Positions 2,077-29,230 of a stretch of DNA of 64,000 nucleotides are shown piece by piece. This DNA comes from Polyangiales bacterium (GTDB taxonomy: Bacteria; Myxococcota_A; Polyangia; Polyangiales; JADJQN01): positions 224,001 through 288,000 of the forward strand of contig CAXNJO010000006.1 in the NCBI GenBank assembly GCA_964202905.1. The letters run 5' to 3'. Position numbers and translations under genes: made by a program. Below the pieces are notes generated by a model that worked only from the letters and a program-made list of their open reading frames with translations, ran no database searches and was not told where the DNA came from. Positions within the stretch are counted from its first letter, which is position 1, and every line of letters starts with the position of its first letter.

Positions 2077-5586
<3,510 letters not shown>

Positions 5587-5611
5587 GACGAGACCGGCCC
5601 AGGACAGATCC

Positions 5612-8536
<2,925 letters not shown>

Positions 8537-11346: not shown

Positions 11347-11529
11347 CGATGATGCGAGGTGACATCACGGTCTTCGCGTCGCCCGGTGCTGCCGCGGTGC
11401 TGCACGGCCGGGCCCGCCGACCGTCCGGCGCCGGTGACTCGTCCTGCGCGGGGTGGCGCGTGGTCGTTCACCGCTGGAACTCGCGGTGGGCCGACCCGGC
11501 CGTCGGGCGCTCGGCTGGAGCATCCGCCC

Positions 11530-12975
11530 GTGCCGACTGAAAGCGCGACGTTCCTCACCGAGTACCTCCGCGCGATCGAGGCGGGGACAGCTGCCGTCTT
11601 CGCCGGCGCCGGGCTCTCGATGGCGGCGGGGTACGTCGACTGGAAGAGGCTGCTCGCAGATGTCGTTGCCGAGCTGAAGCTCGACCCGGACACGGAAAAT
11701 CTGGTTGCCGCGGCGCAGTACCACGTCAACGAGCGCCGCACTCGCGGACGCCTGAACCAGCTCCTGATCGACGAGTTCACGAAGGACGCCGAACCGAACC
11801 CCAACCACAAGCTCCTTGCCCGGCTCCCGATCGAGACGATCTGGACCACGAACTACGACATCTTGCTCGAGACCGCGCTCGCGGCCGAGCACAAGCGTGT
11901 CGACGTGAAGCATCGACAGCCCCAGCTCGCGATCAGCAAGCCGGGTCGCCACGTCACGCTCTACAAGATGCACGGGGACATCTCGTCGCCAGACGAGGCT
12001 GTGCTCGTGAAGGAGGACTACGAGACGTACGACGAGAAGCGAAAGCTCTTCTCGTACCAGCTTCAGGGCGACCTGGTGGCGAAGACCTTCATGTTCATCG
12101 GGTTCAGCTTCACCGATCCCAACATCGACTACCTCCTCGGGCGCATCCGCGGCCTGATGAGCCAGCACGTTCGCACGCACTACTGCTTCATGCGGCGTGT
12201 ATCGAAGCCGGCGAGCAACGCCGGCAAGATCCTCGCGGACTACCAGTACGACCTGCGGCGGCAGCAGCTACTCATCGGCGACCTCAAGCGGTACGGCATT
12301 CAGACTGTGCTCGTTGAGGAGTACAGCGAGATCACGTCGATCCTCGAGCAACTCGATCGTCTGGTCTACCGGAGCAACGTGTTCGTGTCGGGCAGCGCGG
12401 AGGAGTACGCACCGTTCGACCAGCCTCGACTCGACGCCCTCTGCCGCACCCTGGGCCGAACGCTCATGGAGCGTGGACGGAAGCTCACGTCGGGCTTGGG
12501 CACAGGCGTCGGAGGCGTGGTCATCCTCGGCGCGATGGAGGCAATCTACCGGAGGGCGGCCGGCCGCGTGGACGACAGGTTGACGCTGCGACCGTTCCCG
12601 CAGGAACTCGCGGCCGGACCCACGCGCGATGCGATGTGGACTCGCTACCGAGAGGAGATGATCGGGCGTGCGGGCGCCGCTGTCTTTATCGCGGGCAACA
12701 AGCGGGTCGGTGGAACCGTCGTCGTGGCCGACGGCTGCCTGGAGGAGTTCGAGATCGCGAAGGCGCTCGGGCGGACACCGATACCGATCGGCTGTACCGG
12801 GCACGCCGCAGCTCAGATCTGGAACGAGGTGCACACCAACGTCGACACGTTCTACCCAGGGAAGGCGAGCGAGGCGCGAACCGCCCTCGGCGTCCTCAAC
12901 GACCCAGCCTCGGCGGACGTGCAGTTGGTGGAAGCGGTGATGGCGCTTCTCGAACTCGCCGGGGGCAAGAGGTGA
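11530..12975 (+). CDS. thsA: Thoeris ThsA-like SIR2 + STALD/SLOG NADase effector
   Basis: SIR2 motifs [30 protein letters not shown] motifs [25 protein letters not shown], IPIGxTG. Confidence 0.85.
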
Positions 12976-13568
12976 GGCGTTGCGAGGCGGCCACCAAGAG
13001 CGGGAAGAGGTGCCTGAACCGGCCGAGCGATGGAGTTCGGTTCTGTCCGAAGCACATGGGCCGGCTCGACCCGAAGCAGGCGACGTGGGTCGTGGGCGGT
13101 GCTGCTGTGGGGCACGCCATCGTGCCCGTGGTCGGCGGCATGATCGGCGCCGGCGTGGGATGGATCGCTGACAAGTTGACGATGGAGGCGAGAATGGCGC
13201 GCAAGAGAGTGTTCGTGAGCTTCGACTTCGACAACGACCGAGCCCTGAAGGAGTTCATCGTCGGTCAGGCGAAGCTCGCCGACTCGCCGTTCGAGATCGT
13301 CGACTGCTCGCTCAAGGAGGCCGCGCCGATGAAGACGTGGGAGGAGAAAGCGCGGCGGGCCATCGAGGGTTCGGACATCGTGCTTGTCATGGTGGGTGCC
13401 AGCACCCACAAGGCGAGCGGCGTGCTCAAGGAGGTCGCGATGGCCCGAGCGGCGGGCATCCCGCTCGTTCAGATCATCGGATACAAGGACGGCACCTACA
13501 CGGCGGTGAAGGACGCGGGTCGGCTCTACGCGTGGAACTGGGACAACCTGAAGAAGCTGCTCGGCTAG
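12972..13568 (+). CDS. thsB: Thoeris ThsB-like TIR protein with N-terminal CCCH Zn-knuckle and glycine zipper (TIR alone from ATG 13194)
   Basis: GTG overlaps the thsA stop (GTGA). TIR: RVFVSFDFDND...SDIVLVMVG...GVLKEV. Internal GGAGG RBS at 13184-13188. Confidence 0.8.
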   Translation: MRRCEAATKSGKRCLNRPSDGVRFCPKHMGRLDPKQATWVVGGAAVGHAIVPVVGGMIGAGVGWIADKLTMEARMARKRVFVSFDFDNDRALKEFIVGQAKLADSPFEIVDCSLKEAAPMKTWEEKARRAIEGSDIVLVMVGASTHKASGVLKEVAMARAAGIPLVQIIGYKDGTYTAVKDAGRLYAWNWDNLKKLLG

Positions 13569-13604
13569 CCGCAAGTGCGGTCCTGCCACCGAGGCGGCCG
13601 GCGT

Positions 13605-14021
13605 CTACGGGAGGGCGCCGACGACGATCTCCTCGAGCCGCTCCGCGGTGTCGGCGACGAGGTCGAAGAGGGCGGCGCTCTGGGTGACCCCGGGCGCGAT
13701 GATCGCGATCGCCATCTTGGTGATGCCGCGCCCGATGAGGACCTGCTGCGTCACGGCGTGCTCACGCTCGCCGCCGATCAACGTGACGCCGTCGTGCGCA
13801 GGGACCGAGCTCTCCAGGGACGGCAGCGGGTGGGGAACGGCGGCGATATCGCCGGCGTAGGCGACCACCTCCTCGTGCCCGAGGATCCAGAGCACGACGA
13901 GCCGGGCGTCGGCCTCGCGCTCGAGGCGACGCAGTTCCTTCCGCAGACGGTGCTCCGTGCGGACGTCGATACGCCGCAGCAACCAGATGGCGGTGCCGGG
14001 GACGTCGTAGCTCGAGGTCAC
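13605..14021 (-). CDS. Hypothetical protein, possibly Roadblock/GAF-like alpha/beta fold
   Basis: Protein-like composition with helix-strand-strand...strand-helix pattern; GTG start at 14021. Confidence 0.45.
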   Translation of the reverse strand: MTSSYDVPGTAIWLLRRIDVRTEHRLRKELRRLEREADARLVVLWILGHEEVVAYAGDIAAVPHPLPSLESSVPAHDGVTLIGGEREHAVTQQVLIGRGITKMAIAIIAPGVTQSAALFDLVADTAERLEEIVVGALP

Positions 14022-14240
14022 GCCGGCCCCGGGTGCGATGCCGGCCGGGCGTGCGGTGCCGGCAGCAGCTGCATCGCGAGAGGATGTGCCGCTGGCTGGG
14101 TGCGAGCTGCGTCGTCGGTCCGGCGTTCTCCGAGACGGGGCGGGCGAGAATGGTACGTCCGCAGCCGCCCGTCCCCGCAACTGCCTTCCAGAGGGCCGCA
14201 TGCCGCGTCGGAGGCCCACTTTGGTGCTGAGCCGAGATCG

Positions 14241-14650
14241 CTCGTACCAATGTATCGAGGGGGTTGTGAGGGCTTCTGCTCTGGAGCCCCTGGAAAGACG
14301 GCCTCAAGAGGGCTCGTGCATGAGGCATGGCCCTGGGGATCGGCTCCAGGCATGCGCGACGTGGATGATGCCGACGGCACATGGCCATCGGCGCCCAGCG
14401 AGACTTCGGTCGGCGGGGTGGCTCCGGCGAGGATTCCCCGCCGGAGCCCATCGACAGGTCGTTCCCCATCGAGCCCGCGACTTGCCAAATCGCGGGAACC
14501 CCTCGCCACCTCACTGACAGCAGCAACCGCCACACAAGGCGCCAAGGACGCCTCAAGTACGGCCGCCACCGGACCGCCAGCCTCCGACGCCGCCCGACGG
14601 TCCAGCCAGGAGGGGCCTTTGGCCCCGCCCATATGGACCGCCCTACGGCG
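14241..14650 (-). ncRNA. Putative structured RNA downstream of the reverse transcriptase
   Basis: At least seven stem-loops, three abutting. Several imperfect pairs become G-U only on the minus (RT-sense) strand. Confidence 0.5.
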
Positions 14651-14721
14651 CATGAAGAGCGTGCGGGTGATCGCGACCGACTTGGCACTGACGGCCGCGA
14701 AACTCTGGTCCAGGAAGGCCA

Positions 14722-16041
14722 TCACAGCGCCCCCCGAACGATAGGATCCGCGAAGGCCTGGAACTTCGAGATCCAGGTCGTTCGCAGGTTCAACTTCACA
14801 TGGACAGCCGCCTCATCCACTGCGTGGAGGTGGCCCCGGCTGATCGCGCCGGCGGCCTCGCGAAGATCGTCGAGGCGAGACGCTGGATCCAGGGACAGCC
14901 GGAGCACGGCGTCTACGAAGCGGCTCCACAGCCGGCGGTTGCACGGGTCGGTGTCCCGCAGTCGCTCGATGACGGTGTCGAAGTTCTCGCCCGATAGACG
15001 GACGCCGCCGTGCCCGATGTCGTAGCCGAGGAAGTTGATGTTCGCGCCGCGAAGGTCGATCGGCTCCGGGCTCGTCTTAGCCGGGTCCGGGTGCAGGGCG
15101 AGGCCAGTGCGGCTCGCGAGGTCGTGAAGAAGTTGAAGTCCCTCGGCGGCACCAGCGCGCTCGCGGGCAAGGACGAGCAGGTCGTCGGCGTAGCGAAGGA
15201 GGATTGCCCGAGTGCCCATGGCGAGAGCGAAGGGGGCGTCGAAGATCACGTAGCCGACGATGTTGCTGAGCACTGGGGCGATCGACGAGCCCTGGTACAA
15301 GGCGAGCAGAGGCTCAGCGCGCACACCAACCTCGCCGGACACAACGCGCCGATGGTCTGGCCGTCGCACAATCGGCGCAGACATCCGCGCCGCGATGATC
15401 GTCATCATGGCGTCGTCGACCGGGAGCACCACGGGCAGCGAGGCGGCGACGTGGTTGATGGTGATGGACGGGAAGTAGTTGCGGACGTCTGCCCGTGCAG
15501 CCCACACGAATCCGCGGCGCAGCAGCGCCTTCGCCATGAAGAGCCCGGCATGAACGCCGTCGACGCAGCGGTAGGCCAGGATGGTGTGCGGCAGGATCTG
15601 CTCGGCGTGGAGGCTGAGTACCAACAGGATCAAGGTCTGCACGAACCGCTCGAGGAACGGGTGCAGGAAGACCTCGCGCTTCTCGTCGACCATCACGCCC
15701 AGGACGGGCGAAGGACAGGCGCGGCTCTTGGTCGCTGCGTAGGTGTGGTCATGCGCAGCGTCGAAGAACTTCGAGCCTGCCGCCCGCCGGACTGAGCCGG
15801 GTGCGAGACGAGCTCCGGGCGGGATCACGATCCTCCGGCCGTCGCGCCCCTTGCGCGTGGTCTCGACCACCGGCAGGTCACAGCTCGAGGCGAACGCCTC
15901 GTCACCGACGAGCGTGACGACGACGTTCCCGTCGGCGTCACGGAGGCTGCTCGGCACAAGGACGTCGCGGTTCACACGGGCGACGGCGTCGGGGAAGCGC
16001 TCTCGGCGGAAGAGCCCCTTGCTCGATGCAAGCTGGCTCAC
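14722..16041 (-). CDS. Group II-like reverse transcriptase (~439 aa)
   Basis: ERFVQ...AYR (RT2), ADVRNYFPSI (RT3), QGSSIAPVLSNI (RT4), RYADD (RT5), LALHPDPAKT, FLGY (RT7). GGAGG RBS and GTG start overlapping the upstream stop. Confidence 0.9.
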   Translation of the reverse strand: MSQLASSKGLFRRERFPDAVARVNRDVLVPSSLRDADGNVVVTLVGDEAFASSCDLPVVETTRKGRDGRRIVIPPGARLAPGSVRRAAGSKFFDAAHDHTYAATKSRACPSPVLGVMVDEKREVFLHPFLERFVQTLILLVLSLHAEQILPHTILAYRCVDGVHAGLFMAKALLRRGFVWAARADVRNYFPSITINHVAASLPVVLPVDDAMMTIIAARMSAPIVRRPDHRRVVSGEVGVRAEPLLALYQGSSIAPVLSNIVGYVIFDAPFALAMGTRAILLRYADDLLVLARERAGAAEGLQLLHDLASRTGLALHPDPAKTSPEPIDLRGANINFLGYDIGHGGVRLSGENFDTVIERLRDTDPCNRRLWSRFVDAVLRLSLDPASRLDDLREAAGAISRGHLHAVDEAAVHVKLNLRTTWISKFQAFADPIVRGAL

Positions 16042-16205
16042 GGGCGCCTCCGTGCGCGCTGCTGGTCTCGCGCACCAGCGACGAGCAGGCGGACAATCGC
16101 GGCGGACCGCGAGCGCAGCGTCGGGTCCGCACGGAGCATCCGGCGCAGCAGTCGGTCGAGCTCGACCGGGATGCAGACCGACACCTTGACGTACGAGCGG
16201 GTCAC
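16038..16205 (-). CDS. Ribbon-helix-helix DNA-binding protein, coupled to the RT
   Basis: VKVSVCIPVELDRLLRR...RSRSAAIVRLLVAG; its TGA overlaps the RT GTG. Confidence 0.7.
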   Translation of the reverse strand: MTRSYVKVSVCIPVELDRLLRRMLRADPTLRSRSAAIVRLLVAGARDQQRARRRP

Positions 16206-16241
16206 GGACGTCTCTATGACGCTCGTCCGAAAGACTGTCAA
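16205..16241 (-). promoter_or_regulatory. Candidate sigma70 promoter and operator for the RHH-RT operon (possibly leaderless)
   Basis: TTGACA (16236-16241), 17-nt spacer, weak -10 CATAGA, then GTG 7 nt later; inverted repeat CGGACG/CGTCCG at 16205-16229. Confidence 0.45.
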
Positions 16242-16302
16242 TCCCAGTCCGACTTCTTCGGAGGGATTCCGCTCGCACCGCGTTTGCGCTAGGCTCCGCG
16301 TC

Positions 16303-17037
16303 GTGAGCTGGGTGAAGCAGGAACTCGTGCATGTACGAGAGCTCGTGGATGGCGGGCTCTTTAGGAGCCAGTCGGAGGCGATCCGGGAGCTGCGAAAAGC
16401 GGGGGTTCCGCTGGTCGGACCCGTCTTCGCGAGGGAGGAACTGCACCGAGTCCTGCGCGCGGCGAAGCCCACAGAAAGTGTTTCGGACGAGCATGACCCC
16501 GTCGCGGTAGTCGCTCGTCGCTTGGAGAACTTTCAGATCGGCATCACCGACGTCACGCGCGGCAAGGCCCCGCTGGTTCGGCTCACCGCCGACCCGCCCC
16601 GCTTCGTGATCGACATCCTGAACGTGCCGGGGAAGCCGCTCCGCATCGGCCTCGGCGATGCCCGGCCATGGGCCCGTGTGTACGCCGCCAAGACGAGGCG
16701 ACGCGGCGTCGCGCAGTTCAGCGCGAACGGGTTCCTCGAACCGAACGCCGCCGCCGTCTTCTTCTTTGTACTCGTGGACGAGGGGCAGGTGTGGATGCTT
16801 CGTCGCGAGGATCTCGTGCAGCTCGATCACGAGGTGCGCTCCGTCCCGAAGGGGCAACGAGCGATCAAGGCGGCTGAGACCGGGATGGCCAAACACGGAG
16901 ACGAGCCGGGTTCCATGCGGCTGTGGTTTCCGCGAGGCGAGTCTCGGGATCTCTTTCATCCGGCGGAGCGGATCGCCAACGAGCACATGTGCCTCCAACA
17001 CGACGGTGTCTGGGTGGTTGCGAGGGAATCCACATGA
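16303..17037 (+). CDS. Hypothetical DNA-binding protein (N-terminal helical motif; possible degenerate PD-(D/E)xK-like fold)
   Basis: LVDGGLFRSQSEAIREL; AVFFFVLVDEGQVWML. Start uncertain; ATGA-coupled to the next gene. Confidence 0.5.
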   Translation: MSWVKQELVHVRELVDGGLFRSQSEAIRELRKAGVPLVGPVFAREELHRVLRAAKPTESVSDEHDPVAVVARRLENFQIGITDVTRGKAPLVRLTADPPRFVIDILNVPGKPLRIGLGDARPWARVYAAKTRRRGVAQFSANGFLEPNAAAVFFFVLVDEGQVWMLRREDLVQLDHEVRSVPKGQRAIKAAETGMAKHGDEPGSMRLWFPRGESRDLFHPAERIANEHMCLQHDGVWVVAREST

Positions 17038-17417
17038 CGGAGGCCGAGCGAATCACCTCGGCGCATCGCGGGGGGACGCTGTTCCTCTCCCGTGGCGGCG
17101 TGACGCTCAGCAAGTCGATCTCCGCGGACGACCCGGCCGGCGCGATCGTAGACGCCGCCCGCATGCTCGACGTCCTCTCGCCCACGCGGCACCTGACGCC
17201 GGTCCGGCTCATCGTCGGCATGGGCAACGCCTCGGCGCAGTTCGATGCGACGTGGCGGGCTGACGAGACCCTCGGGACGCTCGACGTCGTGCGTCGTGGC
17301 TACTTCGCTCCGAAGCTCGTGCGGACGGAGAACGGCGAGCTGACGCCTCCGATCCGCAACCTCATCGAGCGCATCGCTGACCTCATCCTCGGCGCCTCAC
17401 CTTCGCGTACGATCTGA
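17034..17417 (+). CDS. Hypothetical protein coupled to the recombinase
   Basis: ATGA overlap upstream and TGATG overlap with the LSR start. Confidence 0.55.
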   Translation: MTEAERITSAHRGGTLFLSRGGVTLSKSISADDPAGAIVDAARMLDVLSPTRHLTPVRLIVGMGNASAQFDATWRADETLGTLDVVRRGYFAPKLVRTENGELTPPIRNLIERIADLILGASPSRTI

Positions 17418-19173
17418 TGGCGGTGCGTAAGAACCAGAGCGAGCCCCGGCGGTGGGCGATCTACGCACGCAAGAGTACCGACGAGCAGCTGGCGTCGACC
17501 GAGACACAGATCCGCGAAGCTCGTGCGGCGATCGAACGACGCGGTGGGGTCGTCGCGGACGAGCACATCTTCATCGACGACGCGAAGTCCCGCGCCGAGT
17601 TCAAGAACCGGCCTGCGCTCTGGAAGATGATGGCCGGCGCCTCGGCGTCGGAGTTCGAGGCGCTGATGGTGCGCGACGAGACGCGGCTCGGCGGGGACAT
17701 GCATCGCACCGGCCTCTTGATGCAGGACCTGCTCGAGGCCGGCGTCAGGTTGTTCTTCTACAGCACCGGCGAGGAGGTGCTGCTCGACAACCCGACGCAG
17801 AAGCTCATCGCCACCATCAAGAACTACGGCAGCGAGATCGAGAGGGAGCGCGTGTCCTCGCGCGTGTACGAGCACCTCAAGGGCAAGGCGGAGCGACGCT
17901 GCAATCCCGGTGGCGCCGTGTTCGGCTACACGAACCGGCAGGTTCATGGTGTCGGCGCAGACGGGCGACCGGTGAAGGTGCGCACGGAGTACGAGGTGAA
18001 CGTCGTCGAGGCCGCCGTCGTCGTGCGCATGTTCACGCTGTACGCCGAGGGGAGAGGCCTTCGGTCGATCGCGAGGACGCTCAACGCGGACGGAGTGCCG
18101 TCGCCGCGAGCAGGCCGGCGCGGAACGGGGTCGTGGAGCCCTTCGACGGTGCGCTCGATGCTCACGAACCAGCGGTACCGCGGCTTCGTCCCGTGGAACA
18201 AGACCCAGAAGACGTACAAGGGCGGCACGAAGGTGCGCATCGAGCGCGACCCGGACGAGTGGATGCTCGTGCCCGCACCTGAGCTGCGGATCGTGAGCGA
18301 CGAGCTCTTCGTCGCAGCGGCAGCCCGCCGGCCTGGTCGTGCCCTGGCCAGCGGTGGCAAGCGTGTCGGACGCCCGCCTCAGTTCCTGCTGAGCGGGATC
18401 GCTCGCTGCGGGCAGTGCTCCGGCTCCATCCAGATCGTGCACACCAAGGACGGGCACGAGACCGTGCGCGCTTACGCGTGCAGCTACCACCGCAACCGAG
18501 GGCCCGAGGCGTGCTCGAACGGCCGCCGCCGTCCGATGACCACCGTCGACAGCGCCGTGACCAACTTCCTGATGAACGAGATCACCCACCACGGGCTGCT
18601 CGAGGAGATCATGGACGTGATCAAGCGTCGCCTCGTCGCCCGCCACGAGAAGCCCGGGCGTCGCGACCGGGCCACGCTGGAGGCCGACGGCGAGCAGCTC
18701 CGAGCGGAGATCGCCCGCCTGACCGATGTGCTCACGGTTGCGGGGTCGGCGGCGGAGCCGGTGCTCGAGGGGATCCGTCAGCGGCAAGTGCGCTTGGCGG
18801 CTGTCACGGTCGAGCTCGCTGCGTTGCCCGTGGTGAAGGGCGCGGACGTGATCTCCCTTGAGCTCAAGCGCGCCGAGCGGGAGGCGAAGCAGAACCTCGC
18901 CTCGATGGCGGAGCACATGAAGGCCGACACCGCCGCCGCACGGGCCGTCGTCGCCGGGCTCTTCCCGGATGGCATCCGGGCCTCACCGACCGAAGACGAC
19001 GACGGGCGCCCCCGCTGGCGCCTGGCGGCGCGCGGGCCGTCTTCGGGCCGGCGTCTTTCACGGACGCCGGAGTCACAAATGTAGCGTCCCTAAGCTCTCC
19101 GAGTTGGAACCAAATCGCCGCCTGGGTGGGCGAACTCGAACAGCTGCGGCAGATCGTGAATGCGGCCGCGTAG
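17417..19173 (+). CDS. Large serine recombinase A (probable frameshift ~19035; ORF as given stops at 19084)
   Basis: IYARKST catalytic motif, recombinase domain, Zn-ribbon CGQC...YACS...CS. The alternative frame continues ...TNVASLSSPSWNQIAAW...* across the att core. Confidence 0.85.
19079..19090. repeat. att core direct repeat ATGTAGCGTCCC (copy 1, A/B junction)
   Basis: Identical to 29144-29155 at the tRNA-Glu 3' end; both copies lie at the end of an LSR gene. Confidence 0.8.
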
Positions 19174-19328
19174 CGCCGGATCGTGTTGCTCTCGGTAGCG
19201 CCGTGGGCTCCATCCCCAAGGGATTGGAACCAGGGGGGAGAGACAGAAGCGAAGGGGCAAAGGACACGAGAACAAAGGTCCGCCGAACAACTCCAACCAC
19301 GGCGCGCGTCAGGGCGTAGGCTGAGTGC

Positions 19329-19582
19329 GTGGCGAACCGCTCAACAGAGATCGGACGGATCATGCGCGCCGGCGACACCATCCTCGCCCGCCAGATGATC
19401 CGCCGCGCGATCGAAGCGAGCCGCGGGAACTACGTGCGACCGCGCGCCTCCTCGGCGTCAGCAACGACACGGTCGAGCGACTCGTGCTCCGGCTCGCGCT
19501 TGAGAACGATCTCGATGCGGCTCGCCGCGAGGCTGCTTGGTGGCGGTACTCGCCGCGGAGCCAGGCGCGTCTACTCGAGTAG
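19329..19582 (+). CDS. Fis-type HTH protein, apparent frameshift ~19433
   Basis: IRRAIEASRGNY (19329 frame) joined to RATARLLGVSNDTVERL (19325 frame) reconstitutes a Fis-like HTH. Confidence 0.55.
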
Positions 19583-19584
19583 AC
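19569..19584. promoter_or_regulatory. Perfect 16-bp palindrome GTCTACTCGAGTAGAC, copy 1
   Basis: Seen directly; identical copy at 22967-22982. Confidence 0.6.
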
Positions 19585-19710
19585 ACACTCCGCATGCACG
19601 CGCCCGAGATTCCCGCCGCGGCAATCTACGAAGCGCCGCATAGCCGAGCCAGGGTTCCCTTCGCGCCCGGCGCGGCCCACCTCGAAACCACTTCGCGGTA
19701 CCCTACGGCG

Positions 19711-20520
19711 ATGCGATCTCGTACGAAGTCACCCGCTCCACGTCGCTCCACCGGCGCTCCCAAAGTGTTCTCCACGGACGAGTACGAGATCGCGCGGCGC
19801 GCCTACTTGGAGCACGGCACGATCGAGGCGGTCGCCCGCGCTCTTGCCTGTGACCGTCGCGGCGCCGCGCGACTTGTCGATGCTGGGGAGCCTGCGCTCC
19901 ACCTCCCGTCCCTGAGGGACGCGGCGCGCATCTACGCGTCCACCGTGACCGCGGTCGTTGGCAGGGCCGAGAGTGCGACGAGGACCGAGGAGAGCGCTCA
20001 GCTCGTCCTCACCCTCGAAGCGCGAGCCAAGGCGGCAAAGCAGGCGAGGAAGCACGAGGAGCAAGTTCTCGGCGACGCGACCAAATCGAGAGCGGACGAG
20101 GTGCGCCTCGTGAGGGCGAATCGGATCTCCGCCCTCGTGCTCGCCCAGGTGAACGCGGACCTCCTCAAGCTAAGCACGGGGCTGGCTCGTTCTCTGCTCG
20201 CCGACGAGGAGACGCTGACGAAGCTCAGCGCGGAGAAGCGGCTGGGGATCCTCCGGACCGTAGCGGGCATCGTTCAGCGAACGGCGGACGCGTCGAGGAT
20301 CTCGGTCAACATGGAGCGCCTACTCCTGGGTGAGCCTACCGCCATCCTCGGGAGGGACGGGCCGTCGACGGCCGAGATGAGCGTCGACGAGGCGGAGCAG
20401 TGGCTTGGGATCGCGAACCGCGCCTTCCAACGCAGAGCCGCGCGCCAGGCGCCGATCGAGACCGACAGCGCGCCCGTTCAATCCGACGAGGATGCGGACC
20501 TCACGGAGGCGCTGGGCTGA
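19711..20520 (+). CDS. HTH + helical protein, terminase small subunit-like
   Basis: N-terminal HTH (YLEHGTIEAVARALAC), long helical region, ERLLLGEPT motif. Confidence 0.45.
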   Translation: MRSRTKSPAPRRSTGAPKVFSTDEYEIARRAYLEHGTIEAVARALACDRRGAARLVDAGEPALHLPSLRDAARIYASTVTAVVGRAESATRTEESAQLVLTLEARAKAAKQARKHEEQVLGDATKSRADEVRLVRANRISALVLAQVNADLLKLSTGLARSLLADEETLTKLSAEKRLGILRTVAGIVQRTADASRISVNMERLLLGEPTAILGRDGPSTAEMSVDEAEQWLGIANRAFQRRAARQAPIETDSAPVQSDEDADLTEALG

Positions 20521-20548
20521 GCTGCCTCGAACCCGACCGCAGCGTAGG

Positions 20549-21178
20549 ATGGCGCCCATGGCCAAGGCTCGCACCGACGTGCCGCGCGCGACGAGCGACA
20601 ACCTGCTCCATGCGAGCCGTCACACATGTTGCCGCTGTCACGAGCCGCGGCTCCCGGTCGAGATCCACCACATCAACGGTGATCCCAGCGACCATCGTCC
20701 GCCGAACCTCGCGGTCCTTTGCCGGAACTGCCACGGGCTCGTCACGGCGAAGGGCTCGCTCGGCCGCTCGATCTCGCCCGGCGAGGTGAAACGCAGCAAG
20801 GCCGAGTGGGAGGCAGCGTGCGCGGCGGACGCCGACGAGATCGACGAGCCCGAAGAAGAAGCCCACGACATCGTGCGCGTACCGTCCGGCGGCTGGCACG
20901 AGTGGATCTACCAGCTGCCGGAGGGATACCGGCTCGTCGTCGGTTTCGATTCGGACGTGGCGCTGAACGCGCGCATCGCGCGGCAGAGCGACTACCGCCG
21001 GTGGTGCGCGGACGACCCGGATGCGGTGTGCGAGGTGTTCGAAGAGGAAATCTACGCGGGCGAGTTGGAGCACGCGGCAGACCGCGACAACCGCTACGTC
21101 TTCTGGCTGGAGAACGACGACGACGAGGACGCGATCGTCGAGGTAGACATCGCGGTGTGGGCACCGGCAGGCGAGTGA
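20549..21178 (+). CDS. HNH endonuclease with acidic C-terminal beta-rich domain
   Basis: CCRC...EIHHINGDPSDHRPPNLAVLCRNCH. Confidence 0.8.
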   Translation: MAPMAKARTDVPRATSDNLLHASRHTCCRCHEPRLPVEIHHINGDPSDHRPPNLAVLCRNCHGLVTAKGSLGRSISPGEVKRSKAEWEAACAADADEIDEPEEEAHDIVRVPSGGWHEWIYQLPEGYRLVVGFDSDVALNARIARQSDYRRWCADDPDAVCEVFEEEIYAGELEHAADRDNRYVFWLENDDDEDAIVEVDIAVWAPAGE

Positions 21179-21212
21179 ACGCCATGCGCAGCGGTGGGAC
21201 GCCGAGCCCTCT

Positions 21213-21835
21213 TCAGCGCGTGACTCGGCTCGCCCGGTCGTAGTCCCGCAGGGTCGCCGCCGCGCGGTCGCATGCGCCGACGTTCTCAGCGCACGTCACG
21301 CAGAGCGCTACGTCGCCGCCCGCGCCGCGAAGGAGCAGCGTGTGGAACTGCCGGACGTCCGCGAGTTCCTCTGCGCGCGCCTCCGCGGCGTGAACCCGCG
21401 TGAGCAGTTCGCGCATCCGGTCGCCGCATGCGCGGAGCCGTTCGAGGTCGTCTGTGCGCCGCAGGCTCTCCAGGGCCCGTCCCGCGCGCACGAGCTCGCC
21501 GAACTCGCGCCGAAGTTCAGCGCGGCTAACCACGGCGTTGCGCTCGCGCGCGGCGCTGCGCTGCAGCATCCTCGGGCGGGCTGTTATCGAGCGCTCCGGA
21601 GTTCGCGCCGCTGATGGTGGACGGTGTGGTTGGCTTCGATGCGGTCGCAGGCGCCAGCTTCGGGGCCGAGCGAGTCGAGGACGACGCGCCGCGGTCGAAG
21701 ATACTCGCGAGCATCTCGAGCCCGCAGCACGCCTCCGAACGCGACTACGAAGAGCAGCGCGCAGCCACCCCAGACGATCACTCCGAAGCGCCCGACGCGG
21801 CGCCCGCTTCGCTGAACCTCGTTGAAGTACGACAC
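21213..21835 (-). CDS. Membrane-anchored hypothetical protein, two apparent frameshifts
   Basis: TM segment (21584 frame), Ser/Thr/Pro linker (21526 frame), helical Cys-containing domain (21213 frame). Confidence 0.4.
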
Positions 21836-21837
21836 GA

Positions 21838-22602
21838 CTAGGCCGGCGTGAGGCGGACACCGATCGCGTGTCCACACGTCGTGCGCGTTAGCGCGCGGAT
21901 GGCTCCGACGCGCACGGAGACGGTGGCCGGGCTCGTCATGCATCCCACATCAACGCTGACGGCGAACACGTGTCTGCCGATGCACGTGGCGCCGCTCCGC
22001 GTCACGCCGCCGCCAGAGCCTCCCGTGCAGGACACGAGTCCACCGCTGCAGGTCACGCGGACCTCGACGACGCTGTCCGCGTCGCTCTCCCAGGCGAAGA
22101 CGCGGACGCCTCCGGCGAATCCGACTGTGCCGGGTCCTGCCGAGATCCAGTCCGCCGTGTCGGCGTCGCTCCACGTCATCGGGTAGGACGTCTCCGGCCA
22201 GCCCGCGCCGATCGCTGCGACCGCCGCAGTCTCGGGCGTGTCGTTGCTCTCGAAGACGTCAGCGACGCAGCCCGCGTCGGCCAGAGGGCCGAGGTCAGGC
22301 GGCGACGATGGACCGGCGTCCGTAGCGGAGAAGCCAGCATCGACGAGCGTAGGGCCCGCGTCGGTCCAGGAACCGGCGTCTATGGTCGAACCAGCGTCGT
22401 CGAAGAATCCGCCGTCGCGATCACGGCCGATGTCGGTCCGATCGCCGGCGTCGACGATGCTCGCCGCGTCCGCGCTGGCGTCGAGCGCCGGTCCCGCGTC
22501 GTCCGACGGGGTGGCGTCCGCGGGGGTCGAGCAGCCGAGCGTTTGAACCAAGAGACTGGTGACGAGCGCGAGCACGACCAAGCGGGGAGTGTGTCGGTCC
22601 AT
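21838..22602 (-). CDS. Myxobacterial-type lipoprotein with DAG repeats
   Basis: Signal peptide with TLGC lipobox, many DAG motifs, DVFESND motif, Cys-containing C-terminal domain. Confidence 0.7.
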   Translation of the reverse strand: MDRHTPRLVVLALVTSLLVQTLGCSTPADATPSDDAGPALDASADAASIVDAGDRTDIGRDRDGGFFDDAGSTIDAGSWTDAGPTLVDAGFSATDAGPSSPPDLGPLADAGCVADVFESNDTPETAAVAAIGAGWPETSYPMTWSDADTADWISAGPGTVGFAGGVRVFAWESDADSVVEVRVTCSGGLVSCTGGSGGGVTRSGATCIGRHVFAVSVDVGCMTSPATVSVRVGAIRALTRTTCGHAIGVRLTPA

Positions 22603-22666
22603 GCGTCGGAGCATACCCGGCCTATAAGGCGTGTTACCAGCCGACGCAGGTGCCTAGGGTCTCGGC

Positions 22667-22897
22667 GTGCCACGCCGCCCGCCGCCCCGCCTTCGAGACC
22701 GCCTCGCGGCCGCGGTGAAGCGCCTCCGCGCCGCGCGCAGCCTGACGCAGGAAGGGCTCGCCGAGGCTGCCGATCTCAACGCGCGACACCTCCAGAAGAT
22801 CGAAGTCGGAGCGATGAACGTGACGCTCGACACCCTGGAGAAGCTCGGCGGCGCTCTCGATGTCGACCCCGCCACGTTGATCGCCCGCGATCCGTAG
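22667..22897 (+). CDS. XRE-family HTH regulator
   Basis: VKRLRAARSLTQEGLAEAADLNARHLQKIEVG.MNVTLDTLEKL. Confidence 0.85.
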   Translation: MPRRPPPRLRDRLAAAVKRLRAARSLTQEGLAEAADLNARHLQKIEVGAMNVTLDTLEKLGGALDVDPATLIARDP

Positions 22898-22965
22898 CCC
22901 TCCGGCGAACCCGGTTGGCCGTGAAGCGTCCCCGCACTGACTGACACCAGCCGCCGAGATCGGAA

Positions 22966-22983
22966 TGTCTACTCGAGTAGACA
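22966..22983. promoter_or_regulatory. Palindrome TGTCTACTCGAGTAGACA, copy 2
   Basis: Seen directly. Confidence 0.6.
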
Positions 22984-23219
22984 GTGTCCTCGGGACGGTT
23001 TCGAGAGCCCCGTCGTACACAGCGGGAGCCCGCCGTGTACGAGCCCCGTTCTCTGGGAGCGGGAACGCGATCGCTTCGCGATGTCGAGCGCGGCGTTTCG
23101 ACCGTGCCCGCTTCCAGGGACAGCACGGGCGATGTTGCCCCGGACGCGAGCGGCATGGCGGGGCGCGATGCCCCCGCCGCGTCTGGTCGCGTGTGCTCGT
23201 GGAGGCGTGATCGCCAGAG

Positions 23220-26069
23220 CTACGGCACCTTGCGACCCTTCGGCTTCTTGCTCTTCTTGGCGGAAGGAGCGCCGCCTCCGAGAACAAGCTGCGCGCTCGT
23301 CAGGGTTCTGTAGAGCGCGAACAAGTACTCGACGCGCTCGCGGTCACTCGTGAACTTCGCCCCGCGGTAACACTTCTCGACGGCCTTATCGAGCGCCGCG
23401 TGTGCTTTCACGAGACGCGCGGGCATCGCGAGCGGGTCATAGAGTTCAGCGAGTGTGCTGCTCGGAAAGGCCGCTCGCGCGTCGAGAACCTCCTGCGAGC
23501 AGGCTCCGACCTTGGCGCGCTTCGCGGCGTCGACCTCGGTTGGCCACGGGAAGTTGTTGTAGACGATCCCCACGGAGTACCGATAGCGCGATTCGAGGCG
23601 CCCGCAGACGGTACGCACCCACGCCATGTGCATCGTCGACGTGAGAACGCCGAACTCGTAGAGCGAAGCGTTTGCCAGGACGTACACTTGGTTGGAGGGA
23701 ACGACGGAGGGAGGGAGATACGCGATCGGGATGAACCGCCGCAGCTCCAGCGATGTCGTCGGTATTGCGAGGAAACTGCTGGTCGGCTGCCGGATCTCCG
23801 CGAATCGAGCGGGGGTCTTCGCGAGTTCTTGAGTCGTCTCTCGACCGCGCTTCGCACGCCAGTCACGCACCGCTTTCACGCGCTTGTTGACCGCCGTGAG
23901 CTTGGCCAGATCGCCCGGCGGGGCGTCGACGAGCCAAAGACACCAGCGGTCAATGTTGTGAAGCAGCTCATTGCCTCCGATGAAGCGCCGAATGTACTTA
24001 GCCGCGGCTGGGCTCTCCGCGAGGATGCTGGCGCGATCCTCGGCGTCGAGTGTGTAGTGCCCACCGTCCAGCGCGAAGGAGCCGTACTTGAGTGTCGGCG
24101 CGCGCCCGATCGGTGTCCCTCGGTCGTGTAAGAGGACCGGAGGGCCCTCAACGAGATACTCGTTGATCTCCTTCACGCGGACGTGCCGCGACGCCTCCTC
24201 CTTCGGATCGTCGTAGTCGTAGAGCGTCGGCTTGTCCGCGGGCTCGAACCGTCCGAAGCCGATGATCACGCAGTGTACGTGCGCCTTGCCCCGAGCTTCG
24301 CTCGCCCAGGTGAATGACCTATGCGCGAACTGGATGCGAAGCCCGTCGCCGAACAGCTTCTCGAAGAGGACGCCGGGCTGTTCGCCTTGGGTGATGCTGC
24401 TCGTCGACACGAACGCCACCCGAATCTGCGAACCTCGGATGTAGTCCAGCGCCTTCGCGTACCAGGCGGACACGTAGTCAAGGATGCCGGAGCCCTTCAA
24501 CGGCTTGCCTTTCACGTCAGCGAAGATCGCCGTCAGCTCGGCCTTCTGCTCCTTCGTTTGTTCCTTCTTCCCGACGAAGGGTGGGTTGCCCAGGACAAAC
24601 ACCGAGTTGGATGGCGGCAGGACGGTGCGCCAGTCCGTTCGAAGTGCGTTGGCGTTTCGGATCGTGGGCGTCGCCCTCAAGGGCAGCCGCTTTCCAGGCA
24701 GACCGAATGCCTCGCCCAGCAGACGATTGGCCTGGTGATCGGCGAGCCAGAGGCCGACCTCGGCGATCCGGCAAGGCCACTCGTTGAGTTCGATGCCGTA
24801 GAACTGATCGACGTCCACCTTGCTCAGCTCGCGGACGTCCAAGAACAACGTCTGCGGTTCGTCCTGACGAAGCGCCACGAGCATCTCCTGCTCGATTCGA
24901 CGGAGTTCTCGATACGCGAGGATGAGGAAGTTGCCGCAGCCGCACGCGGGATCGAAGACGCGAATCTGTCGCAGCTTCGCGTGGAACTCCTTCAGGCGCG
25001 CGGCGCGTCGCGTCGATCGATCCTCTTTCAGAGCCGCCAGCTCCTTCTCCAGGTCGTCCAGGAACAGACTGCGGAGCACCTTCAACACGTCCCGTTCGGA
25101 CGTGTAGTGCGCGCCGATTTGTCGTCGCTCCGGCCCGTCGAGGATGTCTTGGAAGAGGCTGCCGAAGACCGCCGGCGAAATACGCGCCCAGTGGAAGTAC
25201 GCACACTGGAGCAGCTTCTCGCGCTGGGCTGACGTGAACGCCGCGGTTGGGAGGGAGCCCTTGAACAGCGCACCGTTCACGTACTCGAACGCGGCGAGGT
25301 CCTCGTCGAGGTTGCGCTGACGGTCTTGGTGGTCCTGGTCGAGTACCTCGAACAACTGCCCGAGGTACATGCCGAGGTCGCTGCCGTCGGGGTTAGTCCG
25401 TTCGAGAAGCTCAGTGAACTGTCGAGGCTCGAAGATGAACGTGTCTTCGGCGAACAGGCAGAATAGGACCCGGACGAGGAAGCGCTCCAAGGCGGCGCCC
25501 GCGTAGCCCGCGTCCTTGAGTGAATCGTGAAGCTCGCAGAGCAGCGCCGTCGCTTCGAAGTTCGCTGGATCTTCCGGGTCGACCTTTTTCGGCTTGTCGC
25601 CTTTGATGAACGCGAACTGCCGGATTTCCTCGTGGAGCTTCCCGAGTGGGATCTCGCTGTACCGGTACTCCTCGTTCGGCCTTGGGTCGTCCGGCTCGAG
25701 GTCGTAGATGCCGAACCGCGTGAAGTCGGAAACGACGACGTAGCGCGGCATTTCCGCCTGCCGGCCCTCGCGCAGCAAGTCACGTAGGTAGTCGAACGCC
25801 TGAAGCTCTGCCTTGTCGAGCGACTGCCCAGCCGATTTGTGCTCGACGAGAAGCACAGACGGCCAGAACAGATCCAGGCGGCCGTACTTGCCGCGGACGT
25901 TCTTGAGAGGGTGCTCGAACGACGCGACTGTCCTCCGCCTCATTCCAAAGATCAGGAAGAACTCGTTCCAGAAGGTCTGCTTGTCCGCATCCTCCTTCTT
26001 CGCGTCTGCCCACTCATGTGAGAATTCCAGCGCGCGGTGTCGGATCTCGTTCCAGTTGATGGTGGTCAT
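23220..26069 (-). CDS. MmeI-family type IIL restriction-modification enzyme
   Basis: N-terminal RLDLFWP..LLVEHKS nuclease motif, GAHYTS, DPACGCGNFL, GNPPF, C-terminal RLESRYRYS..IVYNNFPWP...LAELYDP. Confidence 0.9.
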   Translation of the reverse strand: MTTINWNEIRHRALEFSHEWADAKKEDADKQTFWNEFFLIFGMRRRTVASFEHPLKNVRGKYGRLDLFWPSVLLVEHKSAGQSLDKAELQAFDYLRDLLREGRQAEMPRYVVVSDFTRFGIYDLEPDDPRPNEEYRYSEIPLGKLHEEIRQFAFIKGDKPKKVDPEDPANFEATALLCELHDSLKDAGYAGAALERFLVRVLFCLFAEDTFIFEPRQFTELLERTNPDGSDLGMYLGQLFEVLDQDHQDRQRNLDEDLAAFEYVNGALFKGSLPTAAFTSAQREKLLQCAYFHWARISPAVFGSLFQDILDGPERRQIGAHYTSERDVLKVLRSLFLDDLEKELAALKEDRSTRRAARLKEFHAKLRQIRVFDPACGCGNFLILAYRELRRIEQEMLVALRQDEPQTLFLDVRELSKVDVDQFYGIELNEWPCRIAEVGLWLADHQANRLLGEAFGLPGKRLPLRATPTIRNANALRTDWRTVLPPSNSVFVLGNPPFVGKKEQTKEQKAELTAIFADVKGKPLKGSGILDYVSAWYAKALDYIRGSQIRVAFVSTSSITQGEQPGVLFEKLFGDGLRIQFAHRSFTWASEARGKAHVHCVIIGFGRFEPADKPTLYDYDDPKEEASRHVRVKEINEYLVEGPPVLLHDRGTPIGRAPTLKYGSFALDGGHYTLDAEDRASILAESPAAAKYIRRFIGGNELLHNIDRWCLWLVDAPPGDLAKLTAVNKRVKAVRDWRAKRGRETTQELAKTPARFAEIRQPTSSFLAIPTTSLELRRFIPIAYLPPSVVPSNQVYVLANASLYEFGVLTSTMHMAWVRTVCGRLESRYRYSVGIVYNNFPWPTEVDAAKRAKVGACSQEVLDARAAFPSSTLAELYDPLAMPARLVKAHAALDKAVEKCYRGAKFTSDRERVEYLFALYRTLTSAQLVLGGGAPSAKKSKKPKGRKVP

Positions 26070-26282
26070 GGTGCGGGGGCGCCAGGCTACCACGGTCGTT
26101 CCGCGTGGAGCGCCGTCGCACGCCCGGTCATTCGAGGCCCGGAGAGTCAGCATGTGCGGCGTATCGGACGGGACGGCCGACGGTTGTGCTCGGGTAGGGG
26201 GGTGGGCGAAAGCTCCGTGCGTGAGCACGGTTCGCGGCCGCTTCTCCCCCCGCGCGACTTTCGGGTGGCCCCCACAGTTCAT

Positions 26283-26302
26283 ATGGTATACACGTATACC
26301 AT
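26283..26302. promoter_or_regulatory. Inverted repeat ATGGTATAC-AC-GTATACCAT overlapping the resolvase start
   Basis: Perfect 9-bp AT-rich arms in a GC-rich background. Confidence 0.6.
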
Positions 26303-27041
26303 GCGACGCACTGCGACGACTCCTGCGAACGAACGATCGGTGGCCGGCTACGTGCGCGTCAGCACGGACAAGCAGGCAGACGGTGGCGGAAGCCTCGAAG
26401 CGCAGCGTGAGAAGCTTGAGCTGTTCGCCCGCCTTCACGACCTCGTGCTCGTCGAGGTCTTCGTCGACGCGGGCGCGAGCGCGAAGAGCCTGGACCGTCC
26501 AGCGCTTGACCAGGCGCGGGCGGCGCTTCGCTCCGGACGCGCGAGCGGGCTGTTGGTGACCAAGCTCGATCGCCTCACCCGGAGCGTCCGCGATCTCGAC
26601 GCGCTGGTGACCGAGCACTTCGCGAGCGGTCGATCGTCGCTCATCTCTATCGGTGAGAACGTCGACACGCGTTCCGCCGCGGGCCGGCTCGTCTTGAATG
26701 TGCTCACGTCAGTCGCGCAGTGGGAGCGCGAGGCCATCGGCGAGCGCACGTCATTCGTGATGCGGTCGAAGCAGGCGCGGGGCGAGTTCATTGGTGGGCA
26801 ACCGCCGTTCGGATTCCGCCTCGACGCTCAGGGGGACCTCGTGCCCAACCCCGAGGAGCAGCGGACGATCGACCGCGTGATTCAGCTGCGCGCCTCGGGG
26901 CTCTCGCTCGCAGCCGTCGCACTCACTGCGAACGCAGAGGGGCACGTCGGACGGAGCGGACGCCACCTCGCCAAGACGCAGATCGCGCGCATCGTTCGGA
27001 GCGCGGGGCACGGGAGCCGAGCCCTCGCGGAGGCAGCATGA
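26301..27041 (+). CDS. Resolvase/invertase-type serine recombinase
   Basis: GYVRVST, DAGASAKSLDRPAL, KLDRLTRS, IGERT, GGQPPFG. Confidence 0.9.
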   Translation: MRRTATTPANERSVAGYVRVSTDKQADGGGSLEAQREKLELFARLHDLVLVEVFVDAGASAKSLDRPALDQARAALRSGRASGLLVTKLDRLTRSVRDLDALVTEHFASGRSSLISIGENVDTRSAAGRLVLNVLTSVAQWEREAIGERTSFVMRSKQARGEFIGGQPPFGFRLDAQGDLVPNPEEQRTIDRVIQLRASGLSLAAVALTANAEGHVGRSGRHLAKTQIARIVRSAGHGSRALAEAA

Positions 27042-27232
27042 GCGACAGCACGAAGCAGGTGGCCTTTCGACTTCCGACGGACCTACTCGATCGCGTGGAG
27101 GCGTACCGAGCAAGGCGAATCGAGGCAGCGCCGGACCTCGACCTCTCGCTGACGAAGACGGTGCGAATGCTGCTTGAGGCCGGGCTCGGGGCCGTCGAGA
27201 AGCCGGCCGGGAAACGCCCGCGCGGCCGTTGA
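27038..27232 (+). CDS. Ribbon-helix-helix protein
   Basis: MSDSTKQVAFRLPTDLLDRVEAY...SLTKTVRMLLEAGL; ATGA-coupled to the resolvase. Confidence 0.7.
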   Translation: MSDSTKQVAFRLPTDLLDRVEAYRARRIEAAPDLDLSLTKTVRMLLEAGLGAVEKPAGKRPRGR

Positions 27233-27316
27233 CCGCCCACTCCGCGCGCTCCCGTTCAACTCGGTGAGTGCGGGCTCAACGCAGGTGCGCGGCATGATGA
27301 GTTCAGGAGCGACCCC

Positions 27317-27643
27317 ATGAACCCGAACGACCCCCGACCTCTCCCCTCCGAGCACGACGAAGTGCCCGAGGACGCTCTCGCGGCCAGCCAACAAACCCTC
27401 GAAGCTCTCGGCGACGTGGCGATCACGCTCTTCCTTCGCGAGCGCGGAATCAAGGCGCGCAAGCGCCGAAGAACGTTACCGACGCAGCCGCGGTCCGACG
27501 CCGCCGACATCCTTCCGGAACGGTCGCCGCTCGCTGCCCCGCCGGTCGACTCCTCGGCGACTTCCGGCAGGGGCTCGGCGGGCATTCGCGCACGGGTTCG
27601 GCGCCGGACCGTCGAAGGCAGCGACGCGGACGGTGCCCCGTGA
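27317..27643 (+). CDS. Small hypothetical protein coupled to recombinase B
   Basis: AGGAG RBS; GTGA overlap with the LSR start. Confidence 0.5.
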   Translation: MNPNDPRPLPSEHDEVPEDALAASQQTLEALGDVAITLFLRERGIKARKRRRTLPTQPRSDAADILPERSPLAAPPVDSSATSGRGSAGIRARVRRRTVEGSDADGAP

Positions 27644-29222: not shown

Positions 29223-29230
29223 AGGGAGCG

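Follow-up and report, generated by a model that had tools for sequence, protein, structure and literature searches.

A conserved, structured non-coding region directly downstream of an unclassified group-II-intron-type reverse transcriptase in a Polyangiales bacterium

Introduction

The pairing of a reverse transcriptase (RT) with a structured non-coding RNA (ncRNA) is known from phage-defence systems and, to our knowledge, each RT-ncRNA pair that has been dissected so far has revealed an unexpected form of DNA synthesis, such as the msDNA of retrons, the gene synthesis of DRT2, the homopolymers of DRT9, the telomerase-like repeats of DRT10 and the hairpins of UG27 (DRT, defence-associated RT). 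We know of no defence-type pair of this kind that does not use a retron RT or an RT of the UG/Abi group. In this work we describe a comparable arrangement in a 64,000-nucleotide (nt) stretch of DNA from a Polyangiales bacterium (GenBank assembly GCA_964202905.1, contig CAXNJO010000006.1, positions 224,001-288,000 of the forward strand), which is referred to below as the window and in whose coordinates positions are given unless another locus is named. Here, a 439-residue RT of the group-II-intron type, encoded on the minus strand at 16041-14722, is followed on the same strand by a conserved structured core of about 314 nt (14408-14721) that begins at the RT stop codon and is most likely the partner RNA of the enzyme, so that a known arrangement is here attached to an unclassified RT.

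Among the closest described systems, the class-2 DRTs (DRT2, DRT9 and DRT10/UG17) are portrayed, as far as the available text of the reports goes, as an RT with a cognate structured ncRNA that serves both as scaffold and as template. In those systems the ncRNA lies upstream of the RT gene, whereas the conserved structure of the window lies downstream, and the window RT scores below their models (Drt2 17.8, Drt9 28.5 and UG17 40.2 bits). Retrons resemble the locus in that the RT is contiguous with a structured ncRNA on the same strand, often on prophages. However, the msr-msd ncRNA of a retron precedes the RT and carries flanking inverted repeats and a branching G, whereas the putative RNA of the window comes after the RT, is accompanied by no conserved effector gene, and belongs to an enzyme that scores 27 bits at most on retron RT models.

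The placement seen in the window, a structured ncRNA directly 3' of the RT gene, is that of DRT3, a system which, according to the accessible parts of the reports, needs this RNA (PMC8632793; PMC13174585). In contrast to the single group-II-type RT of the window, DRT3 comprises two UG/Abi RTs (Drt3a/UG3 and Drt3b/UG8) with a short template RNA; the unit of the window is much longer, at about 314 nt, and no template motif was identified in it. The hairpin ncRNA arrays of UG27 are described, in the accessible part of a preprint, as being copied into short cDNA hairpins (bioRxiv 10.64898/2026.09.22.753630), and these arrays share with our locus a location on integrated elements (prophages) and a long intergenic region next to the RT that holds hairpins conserved in structure and diverse in sequence; moreover, one close homologue of our locus, L001, holds one type of hairpin twice in tandem. 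On the other hand, UG27 is described with a pair of accessory proteins and with units of about 150 nt that are repeated, whereas the window has neither a conserved accessory protein nor a repeat family. The best structural matches of the window RT are G2L4 and the group II intron RTs, of which G2L4 acts, in the available description, in double-strand break repair without a dedicated RNA; no intron ribozyme was found in 12000-20000. A literature search at the level of abstracts returned no description of a group-II-like or G2L-type RT with a cognate (3') ncRNA, and the present locus suggests that a dedicated 3' RNA has been gained as well by an RT lineage whose closest kin are the group II intron, G2L and CRISPR-associated RTs.

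A conserved structure on the RT strand

The stretch that follows the RT gene is a real, conserved structure that lies on the RT strand and does not code for protein. An earlier note on this DNA, written from the sequence before any homologue was compared, had pointed out a dense hairpin array at 14241-14650 and had read it as selected for structure in the RT sense. All of the stems it named are present in the sequence and all were recovered by minimum-free-energy folding of the minus strand. Folding of both strands against shuffled sequences gave -225.3 kcal/mol for the minus strand of 14241-14650 compared with -198.35 +/- 6.52 for its shuffles (z -4.13; none of 100 shuffles as good), and -196.1 kcal/mol for the plus strand compared with -181.54 +/- 6.41 (z -2.27; 1 of 100 as good), so that the array folds better than shuffles. 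The RT-sense strand is the more stable one in eight of nine elements, and over the whole core the sense strand reaches -189.2 kcal/mol and the antisense strand -145.2.

Strand-specific G-U pairing holds for the seven stems termed H0 to H6 below, in which the minus strand forms 18 G-U pairs and the plus strand not a single one. The largest stem of the left third, H7 (14281-14349), is not strand-specific and is the one exception in stability, at -34.6 kcal/mol on the plus strand as against -27.6 on the minus strand. In the core as a whole, sense and antisense G-U pairs number 19 and 3 in the window, 14 and 5 in L001, and 16 and 1 in the second close homologue, L002, a comparison to be read with the caveat that G-U pairs are favoured on the minus strand because this strand is G+U-rich. 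Selection for structure on the RT-sense strand is nevertheless supported by stability, by the G-U counts and by the pairs that are kept in the homologues. The extent first proposed was right in its right-hand part, which is conserved, and not in its left-hand part, as 14241-14407 is unconserved in L001; the true unit is 14408-14721, which starts from the RT stop codon and includes a further hairpin at 14671-14700.

Read from the RT stop codon on the minus strand, this core consists of three hairpins and a four-way junction. H0 (14671-14700) is a 9-bp hairpin about 20 nt past the stop; H1 (14588-14650) is a long hairpin in two parts, with an apical stem rich in G+C and a triloop; and H2 (14515-14571) is a long hairpin with 8 G-U among its 23 pairs, which reaches -33.7 kcal/mol on the minus strand as against -12.6 on the plus strand. 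The junction (14415-14501) is closed by a helix of 14497-14501 with 14415-14419 and carries the arms H3 (14474-14496), H4 (14451-14472), an 8-bp hairpin with the invariant loop GAACGA, and H5 (14420-14448). A long-range pairing of 14497-14505 with 14256-14265, which had earlier been considered possible, is not favoured, the local closing helix being kept with a compensatory change in L001. Beyond the core, 14040-14407 has no coding signature, holds H6 (14371-14391) and H7, and may be a variable tail or a spacer.

Conservation in two close homologues

The search for close loci returned one locus from genome contigs, one from metagenomes and none from viral contigs. L002 is a contig of 1742 nt with an RT that is 58% identical to that of the window, and L001 lies on a 3.2-Mb contig of a genome from the same order as the window, with an RT identity of about 50-56%. 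In both of them base pairs are kept through sequence changes.

In L002 the similarity at DNA level extends 134 nt beyond the RT stop codon, and a 65-nt downstream stretch is 75% identical, as compared with 69.5% for the coding sequence. Without any fitting to structure, a MAFFT alignment shows that L002 keeps 30 of the 34 window-derived pairs in H0, the connecting stem and H1, with seven one-sided and two two-sided changes, as against 31-50% paired when the partners are slid by one to three columns. Two pairs of H1 have changed on both sides, and this hairpin alone folds with z -4.66 in the window and -4.86 in L002. All nine pairs of H0 are kept, six of them changed on one side only; because the L002 version contains five G-U pairs, it forms only on the RT-sense strand. 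H0 is also kept in L001, with one A-C at a G-U position. Covariation of H2 with L002 was not counted because this hairpin is out of register in the MAFFT alignment, where the 6-bp hairpin of L002 sits within 1-2 nt of it.

The L001 core (5318-5632 of that locus) has 315 nt compared with 314 in the window, and its junction lies equally far from the stop codon, with a colinear match of 55 nt (E 0.006) corresponding to the centre of the four-way junction. A covariance model of the junction built from the window alone (R1) finds L001 at 5549-5632 with 39.4 bits (E 4.9e-6), and among eight sources it finds only L001, the other match above noise being the window's own antisense palindrome. In an alignment fitted by the model, L001 has letters at 27 of the 36 junction pairs, of which 24 are paired, with seven two-sided and two one-sided changes; slid controls gave 41-51% paired and zero to one two-sided pairs, and 3 of 500 shuffles reached the observed values. 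Of the two-sided changes, those in H4 (two), in the closing helix (one) and in H5 (one) can be trusted whatever the register. The stems of H4 are UCGAUGGG/CCUGUCGA in the window and UCGGCGGC/GCUGCCGA in L001, so that two pairs differ on both sides and one on one side, a G-U pair is kept in place and the loop GAACGA is identical. The space of H1 and H2 is occupied in L001 by two tandem hairpins of the H1 design. These hairpins were considered as a repetitive extragenic palindromic (REP) element and this was rejected, given a single weak 30-nt match elsewhere in the genome, which is not the pattern of a dispersed repeat. Past the junction, over 14040-14407, no similarity between the window and L001 was detected.

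Outside these loci the architecture was not encountered. A second covariance model, built from the window together with L001 (R2), was run over 32 genomes of the family of L001 and retrieved only the L001 locus itself (E 3e-13); the two weak matches that it also gave fall within conserved coding DNA where no RT is present. When viral contigs were scanned for the pattern of H4, 23 matches turned up, about the number estimated by chance, and none of them fits R1. A blastn search of the window's own genome (5.68 Mb) with 14001-14760 found no second copy, in the contigs of four public DNA runs only identical pieces and short matches of an unrelated kind turned up, the non-coding region showing no variant, and an Rfam scan of 12000-20000, one of the checks proposed at the outset, matched no family on either strand at E up to 1. 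The architecture of about 314 nt is thus kept in both close loci and is found nowhere else in the sequences searched.

Absence of a coding signature

The window has a G+C content of about 68%, because of which long open frames occur in all six frames, and codon-position G+C was used to tell true genes from spurious open reading frames (ORFs), namely the signature of G+C at third codon positions (GC3) and its excess over second positions (GC3 minus GC2). By this measure the flanking genes score 0.3-0.5, while within 14040-14750 no frame on either strand rises above 0.16. An ungapped block of 176 nt aligned with L002 contains 72 substitutions spread as 24/29/19 over the three phases, and each of the six frames gives an amino-acid identity of 20-24 of 58; in the RT coding sequence of the same two loci, by contrast, substitutions are distributed as 124/102/173 over the codon phases. 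A 235-residue ORF at 14018-14725, which had been suspected of being non-globular, had no cross-locus match when all ORFs of eight loci were compared with each other and, like the 308-residue ORF and a 389-residue ORF on the plus strand, matched nothing in Pfam or PADLOC. In view of the missing GC3 signal, the even phases and the lack of any protein-level match to L001, it is judged not to be a protein.

The reverse transcriptase and its relatives

The RT is taken to be a protein of 439 residues and not of 759, because the GC3 signal in its frame is confined to 14722 to about 16050, a GGAGG ribosome-binding site at 16051-16047 precedes a GTG start at 16041, and the aligned homologues all start at the same residue as this GTG. 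The 759-residue ORF is accordingly discarded as an artefact whose first 320 residues are spurious. The gene is present in a single copy in its genome. The RT motifs, including the YADD active site, are invariant in the alignment of homologues, and the AlphaFold2 (AF2) model computed with 41 relatives has a mean predicted local distance difference test (pLDDT) score of 95.1. Its best Foldseek neighbour is the group II intron RT GsI-IIC (E 4.8e-13, TM 0.60-0.63 over about 419 columns), followed by G2L4 (E 1.8e-12) and then by DRT9, DRT2, retron and diversity-generating retroelement (DGR) RTs; the solved RT-ncRNA complexes of DRT2 and DRT9 are among these structural neighbours at E 2e-10 to 4e-10. 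In a sequence comparison with PDB chains the best match is Cas6-RT-Cas1 (3.3e-11), and the next G2L4 (1.2e-10). With invariant motifs and a confident model nearest to GsI-IIC and G2L4, the RT is predicted to be a competent enzyme.

In spite of its group-II-intron-type fold, the enzyme fits no retron, group II, DGR or CRISPR-RT model and probably none of the DRT/UG models. Pfam RVT_1 is borderline (29.0 bits, cut-off 29.6). The group II maturase model TIGR04416 gives 51.8 bits against a cut-off of 300, which does not support an intron-encoded RT/maturase, and the Rfam scan reported above revealed no intron ribozyme domains, so the locus combines a group-II-type RT fold with the absence of intron RNA, as G2L enzymes do. 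Retron models likewise do not recognize it (NCBIfam retron_St85_RT 27 bits, cut-off 235; PADLOC retron profiles at most 24.8 bits), and the conserved structure lies downstream of the RT, with only about 130 nt between the RT start and the divergent gene upstream, which is not the placement of a retron ncRNA. For DRT2 the NCBIfam model NF041746 has a cut-off of 390 bits, against the 17.8 obtained. The best PADLOC match is the generic RT profile with 65.3 bits; the profiles of the UG/Abi DRT classes, for which no cut-offs are listed, range from 16.9 to 45.8 bits and stay below it, with UG26, UG17, UG4 and Drt9 at 28-46 and Drt3a at 16.9. The UG27 scores of the relatives are 29.8 bits or lower, so the RT is probably not a UG27. 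Of 20 relatives scanned, the 18 closest score like the window RT on the PADLOC profiles; P0076 and P0083, the remaining pair, are group-II-type RTs of the ordinary kind, with 105-171 bits on the same UG profiles. A DGR is not indicated either, as blastn of 14001-14760 against the 5.68-Mb genome gave, apart from the self match, only chance matches of up to 64 nt and hence no template/variable repeat. The RT domain resembles that of RT-Cas1 proteins; however, no direct-repeat family was found in 13900-14800 and Pfam scans of the neighbours in 91-31948 showed no Cas domain.

The family is rare. An exhaustive search of 1.84 billion representatives gave 57 clusters at E up to 1e-30, and a word-indexed search of 5.8 billion proteins gave seven relatives of the RT. 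In a sample of 401 genomes of the order the family occurs in six, the window's own included, and a sample of 401 genomes of the phylum added one further member. Five more distant loci from the same order (L004, L036, L037, L038 and L039) have RTs that are 30-36% identical to that of the window, and in all five the coding signal is low for 370-420 nt or more past the RT stop. Their folding z values are weak, and the sense folds of L004 and L039 are no better than shuffles. These two loci, which represent a second RT subfamily, share a different downstream structure, of 28 pairs with five compensatory changes and none broken. Short tandem repeats were also observed in the first 60-80 nt past the RT stop, at about 1395-1440 (minus strand) in L039, where there are three copies of a 15-mer, and at 2437-2500 in L004, where the copies are degenerate.

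Possible roles of the structured region

The data describe a conserved, structured, non-coding unit that is contiguous with the RT, lies in the RT sense and travels with the RT. On balance we favour the view that the region encodes an RNA which belongs to this RT and lies 3' of its gene, a partner that would serve as scaffold or template; the view is drawn from the analogy with the DRT3 ncRNA, the UG27 arrays and the ncRNAs of DRT2, DRT9 and DRT10. Under this proposal the RNA would be transcribed together with the RT message or just behind it and would be bound by the RT, which would probably recognize it by the junction with the GAACGA loop; in the manner of class-2 DRTs, UG27 arrays and retrons, it could then be the scaffold of cDNA synthesis, its template or both. 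The RT-RNA pair would form a self-contained cargo module of integrative elements, its function most likely being anti-phage defence. Such a system would be compact, consisting of one enzyme of 439 residues and about 314 nt with a delimited RNA core and a candidate recognition element, and it is therefore directly clonable and testable.

Several observations weigh against this proposal. The comparative depth is three sequences with the core (window, L001 and L002), and each of the two homologues has a weakness of its own: L002 ends 215 nt past the RT stop, and its two-row shuffle control is uninformative (142 of 500), while the RT of L001 (4001-5314) is split over three frames by two frame shifts, which may be either true decay or a long-read assembly error, the 3' structure being intact despite the split. 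In the case of L001 the model aligned the sequence so as to fit the structure, and three two-sided changes in H3 depend on the register of that alignment. The strand asymmetry is small over the whole 690-nt gap (z -2.95 versus -2.46, 30 shuffles), and in the folding of the gap in L001 the antisense strand is as strong as the sense strand (-7.16 versus -6.55). In the distant loci L004 and L036-L039 the R1 model finds nothing significant, the sense fold of L004 is no better than shuffles (z -0.42), and the block shared by L004 and L039 has more G-U pairs on the antisense strand. No promoter or terminator consensus and no terminator-like site with a T-run was found in 13500-16500. Finally, no effector gene is conserved with the RT, and the evidence for a role in defence comes exclusively from the neighbourhood.

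A cis-acting role has some attraction and is nonetheless rather unlikely, namely that the region is a 3' untranslated region (UTR) of the RT message which terminates transcription, shields the mRNA from 3' exonucleases or regulates the RT, the RNA being neither bound nor copied by the enzyme. The structure follows directly from the stop codon, it is on the same strand as the mRNA, and the scan found no consensus for a separate promoter, all of which a 3' UTR would share. However, a four-way junction with an invariant six-base loop, kept by compensatory changes between loci whose RTs are 50-58% identical, goes beyond what a stabiliser needs; about 314 nt is long for such a role, the T-run of a terminator-like site is missing, and in the literature searched, within the text available, the conserved RT-adjacent RNAs with a tested function are all partners of the enzyme.

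It is also conceivable, and in our view improbable, that the RT-RNA pair serves not defence but the integrative element that carries it, by priming, by replicating the excised element or by aiding integration. A site-specific recombinase is encoded no further than about 2.5 kb from the RT in each of the seven loci of the family that were examined; it comes after a divergent PD-(D/E)xK-like gene in four loci, after the RT 3' region in two and, in one, is a small resolvase about 2.3 kb upstream; in addition, a related element without RT, L051, has a phage-type DNA primase in the divergent slot. Yet in five other relatives without an RT this slot is taken by genes that are unrelated or of unknown kind, the RT is single-copy, and neither a further copy of the RNA nor a repeat resembling a target was found in the genome. 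Moreover, defence cargo is typically located beside an integrase in satellites and prophage hotspots. A narrower version, to which we give a still smaller chance, would make the RT and its 3' RNA a replication or priming module in which RNA-templated or RNA-primed DNA synthesis is coupled to the serine or tyrosine recombinase. If this were true, the RT module would sit in the very slot where a related element carries a DNA primase, and it would parallel, in its logic, recombinase-using retroelements such as the eukaryotic DIRS elements.

A role of the structure as single-stranded DNA, whether as single-strand origin, primosome assembly site or recombination site, is very unlikely. Strand-specific hairpins with G-T wobbles on an integrative element would be in keeping with it, and a single-strand origin had been put forward earlier; however, it is the RT that the motif accompanies, and not the backbone of the element. 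The motif is colinear with the RT although the downstream genes differ (a 138-residue ORF and Thoeris in the window, xis and int in L001), it was found only at the RT in the 32 genomes of the L001 family, it was not seen in the vicinity of elements that have this recombinase module and lack the RT, and Pfam scans of the neighbourhood showed no conjugation or rolling-circle genes. That the hairpins are the chance product of a G+C-rich spacer is highly improbable: high-G+C DNA does fold strongly, the whole 711-nt stretch has a z of only -1.93 (20 shuffles) and the distant loci have weak z values, but none of 100 shuffles matched 14241-14650, H1 by itself has a z of -4.66, pairs are kept through changes in two homologues, and the DNA just downstream of the gene is better conserved than the gene. 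Hardly credible, lastly, is a coding function of the stretch, be it as the 235-residue ORF, as another frame or as a frameshift extension of the RT. In its favour, a frame overlapping the RT stop (GTGA) stays open over 235 codons in the window, over 117 in L001 and over 71 or more in L002, but such frames are usual at 68% G+C and carry no weight against the absent GC3 signal, the even substitution phases, the equal identity in six frames and the lack of Pfam, PADLOC and cross-locus matches.

Recombinase module and cargo genes

The RT and its 3' region are variable cargo beside the recombinase module of an integrative element. Upstream of the RT, on the plus strand, lies the divergent gene (16171/16300-17037), whose predicted fold is PD-(D/E)xK-like: its AF2 model (pLDDT 74.8) resembles such nucleases with moderate scores, with VIA Z values of 7.9 to I-Ssp6803I, 6.6 to MepB and 6.1-6.4 to Hjc, and Foldseek relates it at E of about 0.01 to the SPARDA nuclease domain. 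The gene is conserved in six of the seven loci that have sequence upstream of the RT, and it was considered as an effector of the RT. In the order it occurs in 10 of 401 genomes. Of its 12 loci, nine show a co-oriented run of this partner gene, a small ORF and a recombinase, often with overlapping stop and start codons, and in six an RT is absent from the surrounding 1.5 kb; for these two reasons it is assigned to the recombinase module, and the effector idea was abandoned. In the window this run spans 16171-19084, with the plus-strand partner gene first. Its recombinase is a large serine recombinase in the window and in L040, L042, L051, L054 and L057, and a tyrosine integrase in L041, L052 and L055. 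L001 and L037 have their integrase on the far side of the RT 3' region, a xis-like gene and a tyrosine integrase coming after the non-coding stretch, and in L053 none was seen in the flank examined. The partner protein could be a directionality or accessory factor.

On the minus strand, a possible small ORF of about 57 residues (16041-16211) precedes the RT, its TGA overlapping the GTG of the RT as GTGA. It shows a weak GC3 signal in its own frame, has no Pfam or PHROGs match, is not conserved in L001 and gives the impression of a ribbon-helix-helix protein. A conserved ORF without a family was observed directly upstream of the RT, overlapping its start, in L002 (2-220) and L036 (863-1507), and it differs from the small ORF of the window. 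On the other side of the non-coding gap, the next minus-strand gene is a 138-residue ORF (14021-13608) that converges on Thoeris; as a candidate partner of the RT it was dismissed, having no family match and being kept in no other locus.

The cargo nearby includes Thoeris, a DUF499 protein, a SNF2-NOV_C helicase, AbiEi/AbiEii and an MmeI-like enzyme, and with such a neighbourhood the locus fits a defence island on integrative elements. Thoeris is represented by ThsA (11359-12975), with SIR2 and STALD (SLOG) domains, and by a ThsB-type TIR protein that ends at 13568; the coding signal of the latter starts near 12980, so that the true start is probably downstream of 12636, where the listed ORF begins. 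The SNF2-family helicase with a C-terminal NOV_C domain is encoded at 2077-5583 in the window and at 14489-18061 in L042, on the element of genome G355, which suggests that the two elements share part of their backbone. A second mobile or defence segment was noticed at 19100-29305, with an MmeI-like restriction-modification enzyme (23223-26618) and a second large serine recombinase (27640-29184) whose gene end overlaps a tRNA-Glu gene (29149-29222), which is adjoined by a tRNA-Lys gene (29231-29305).

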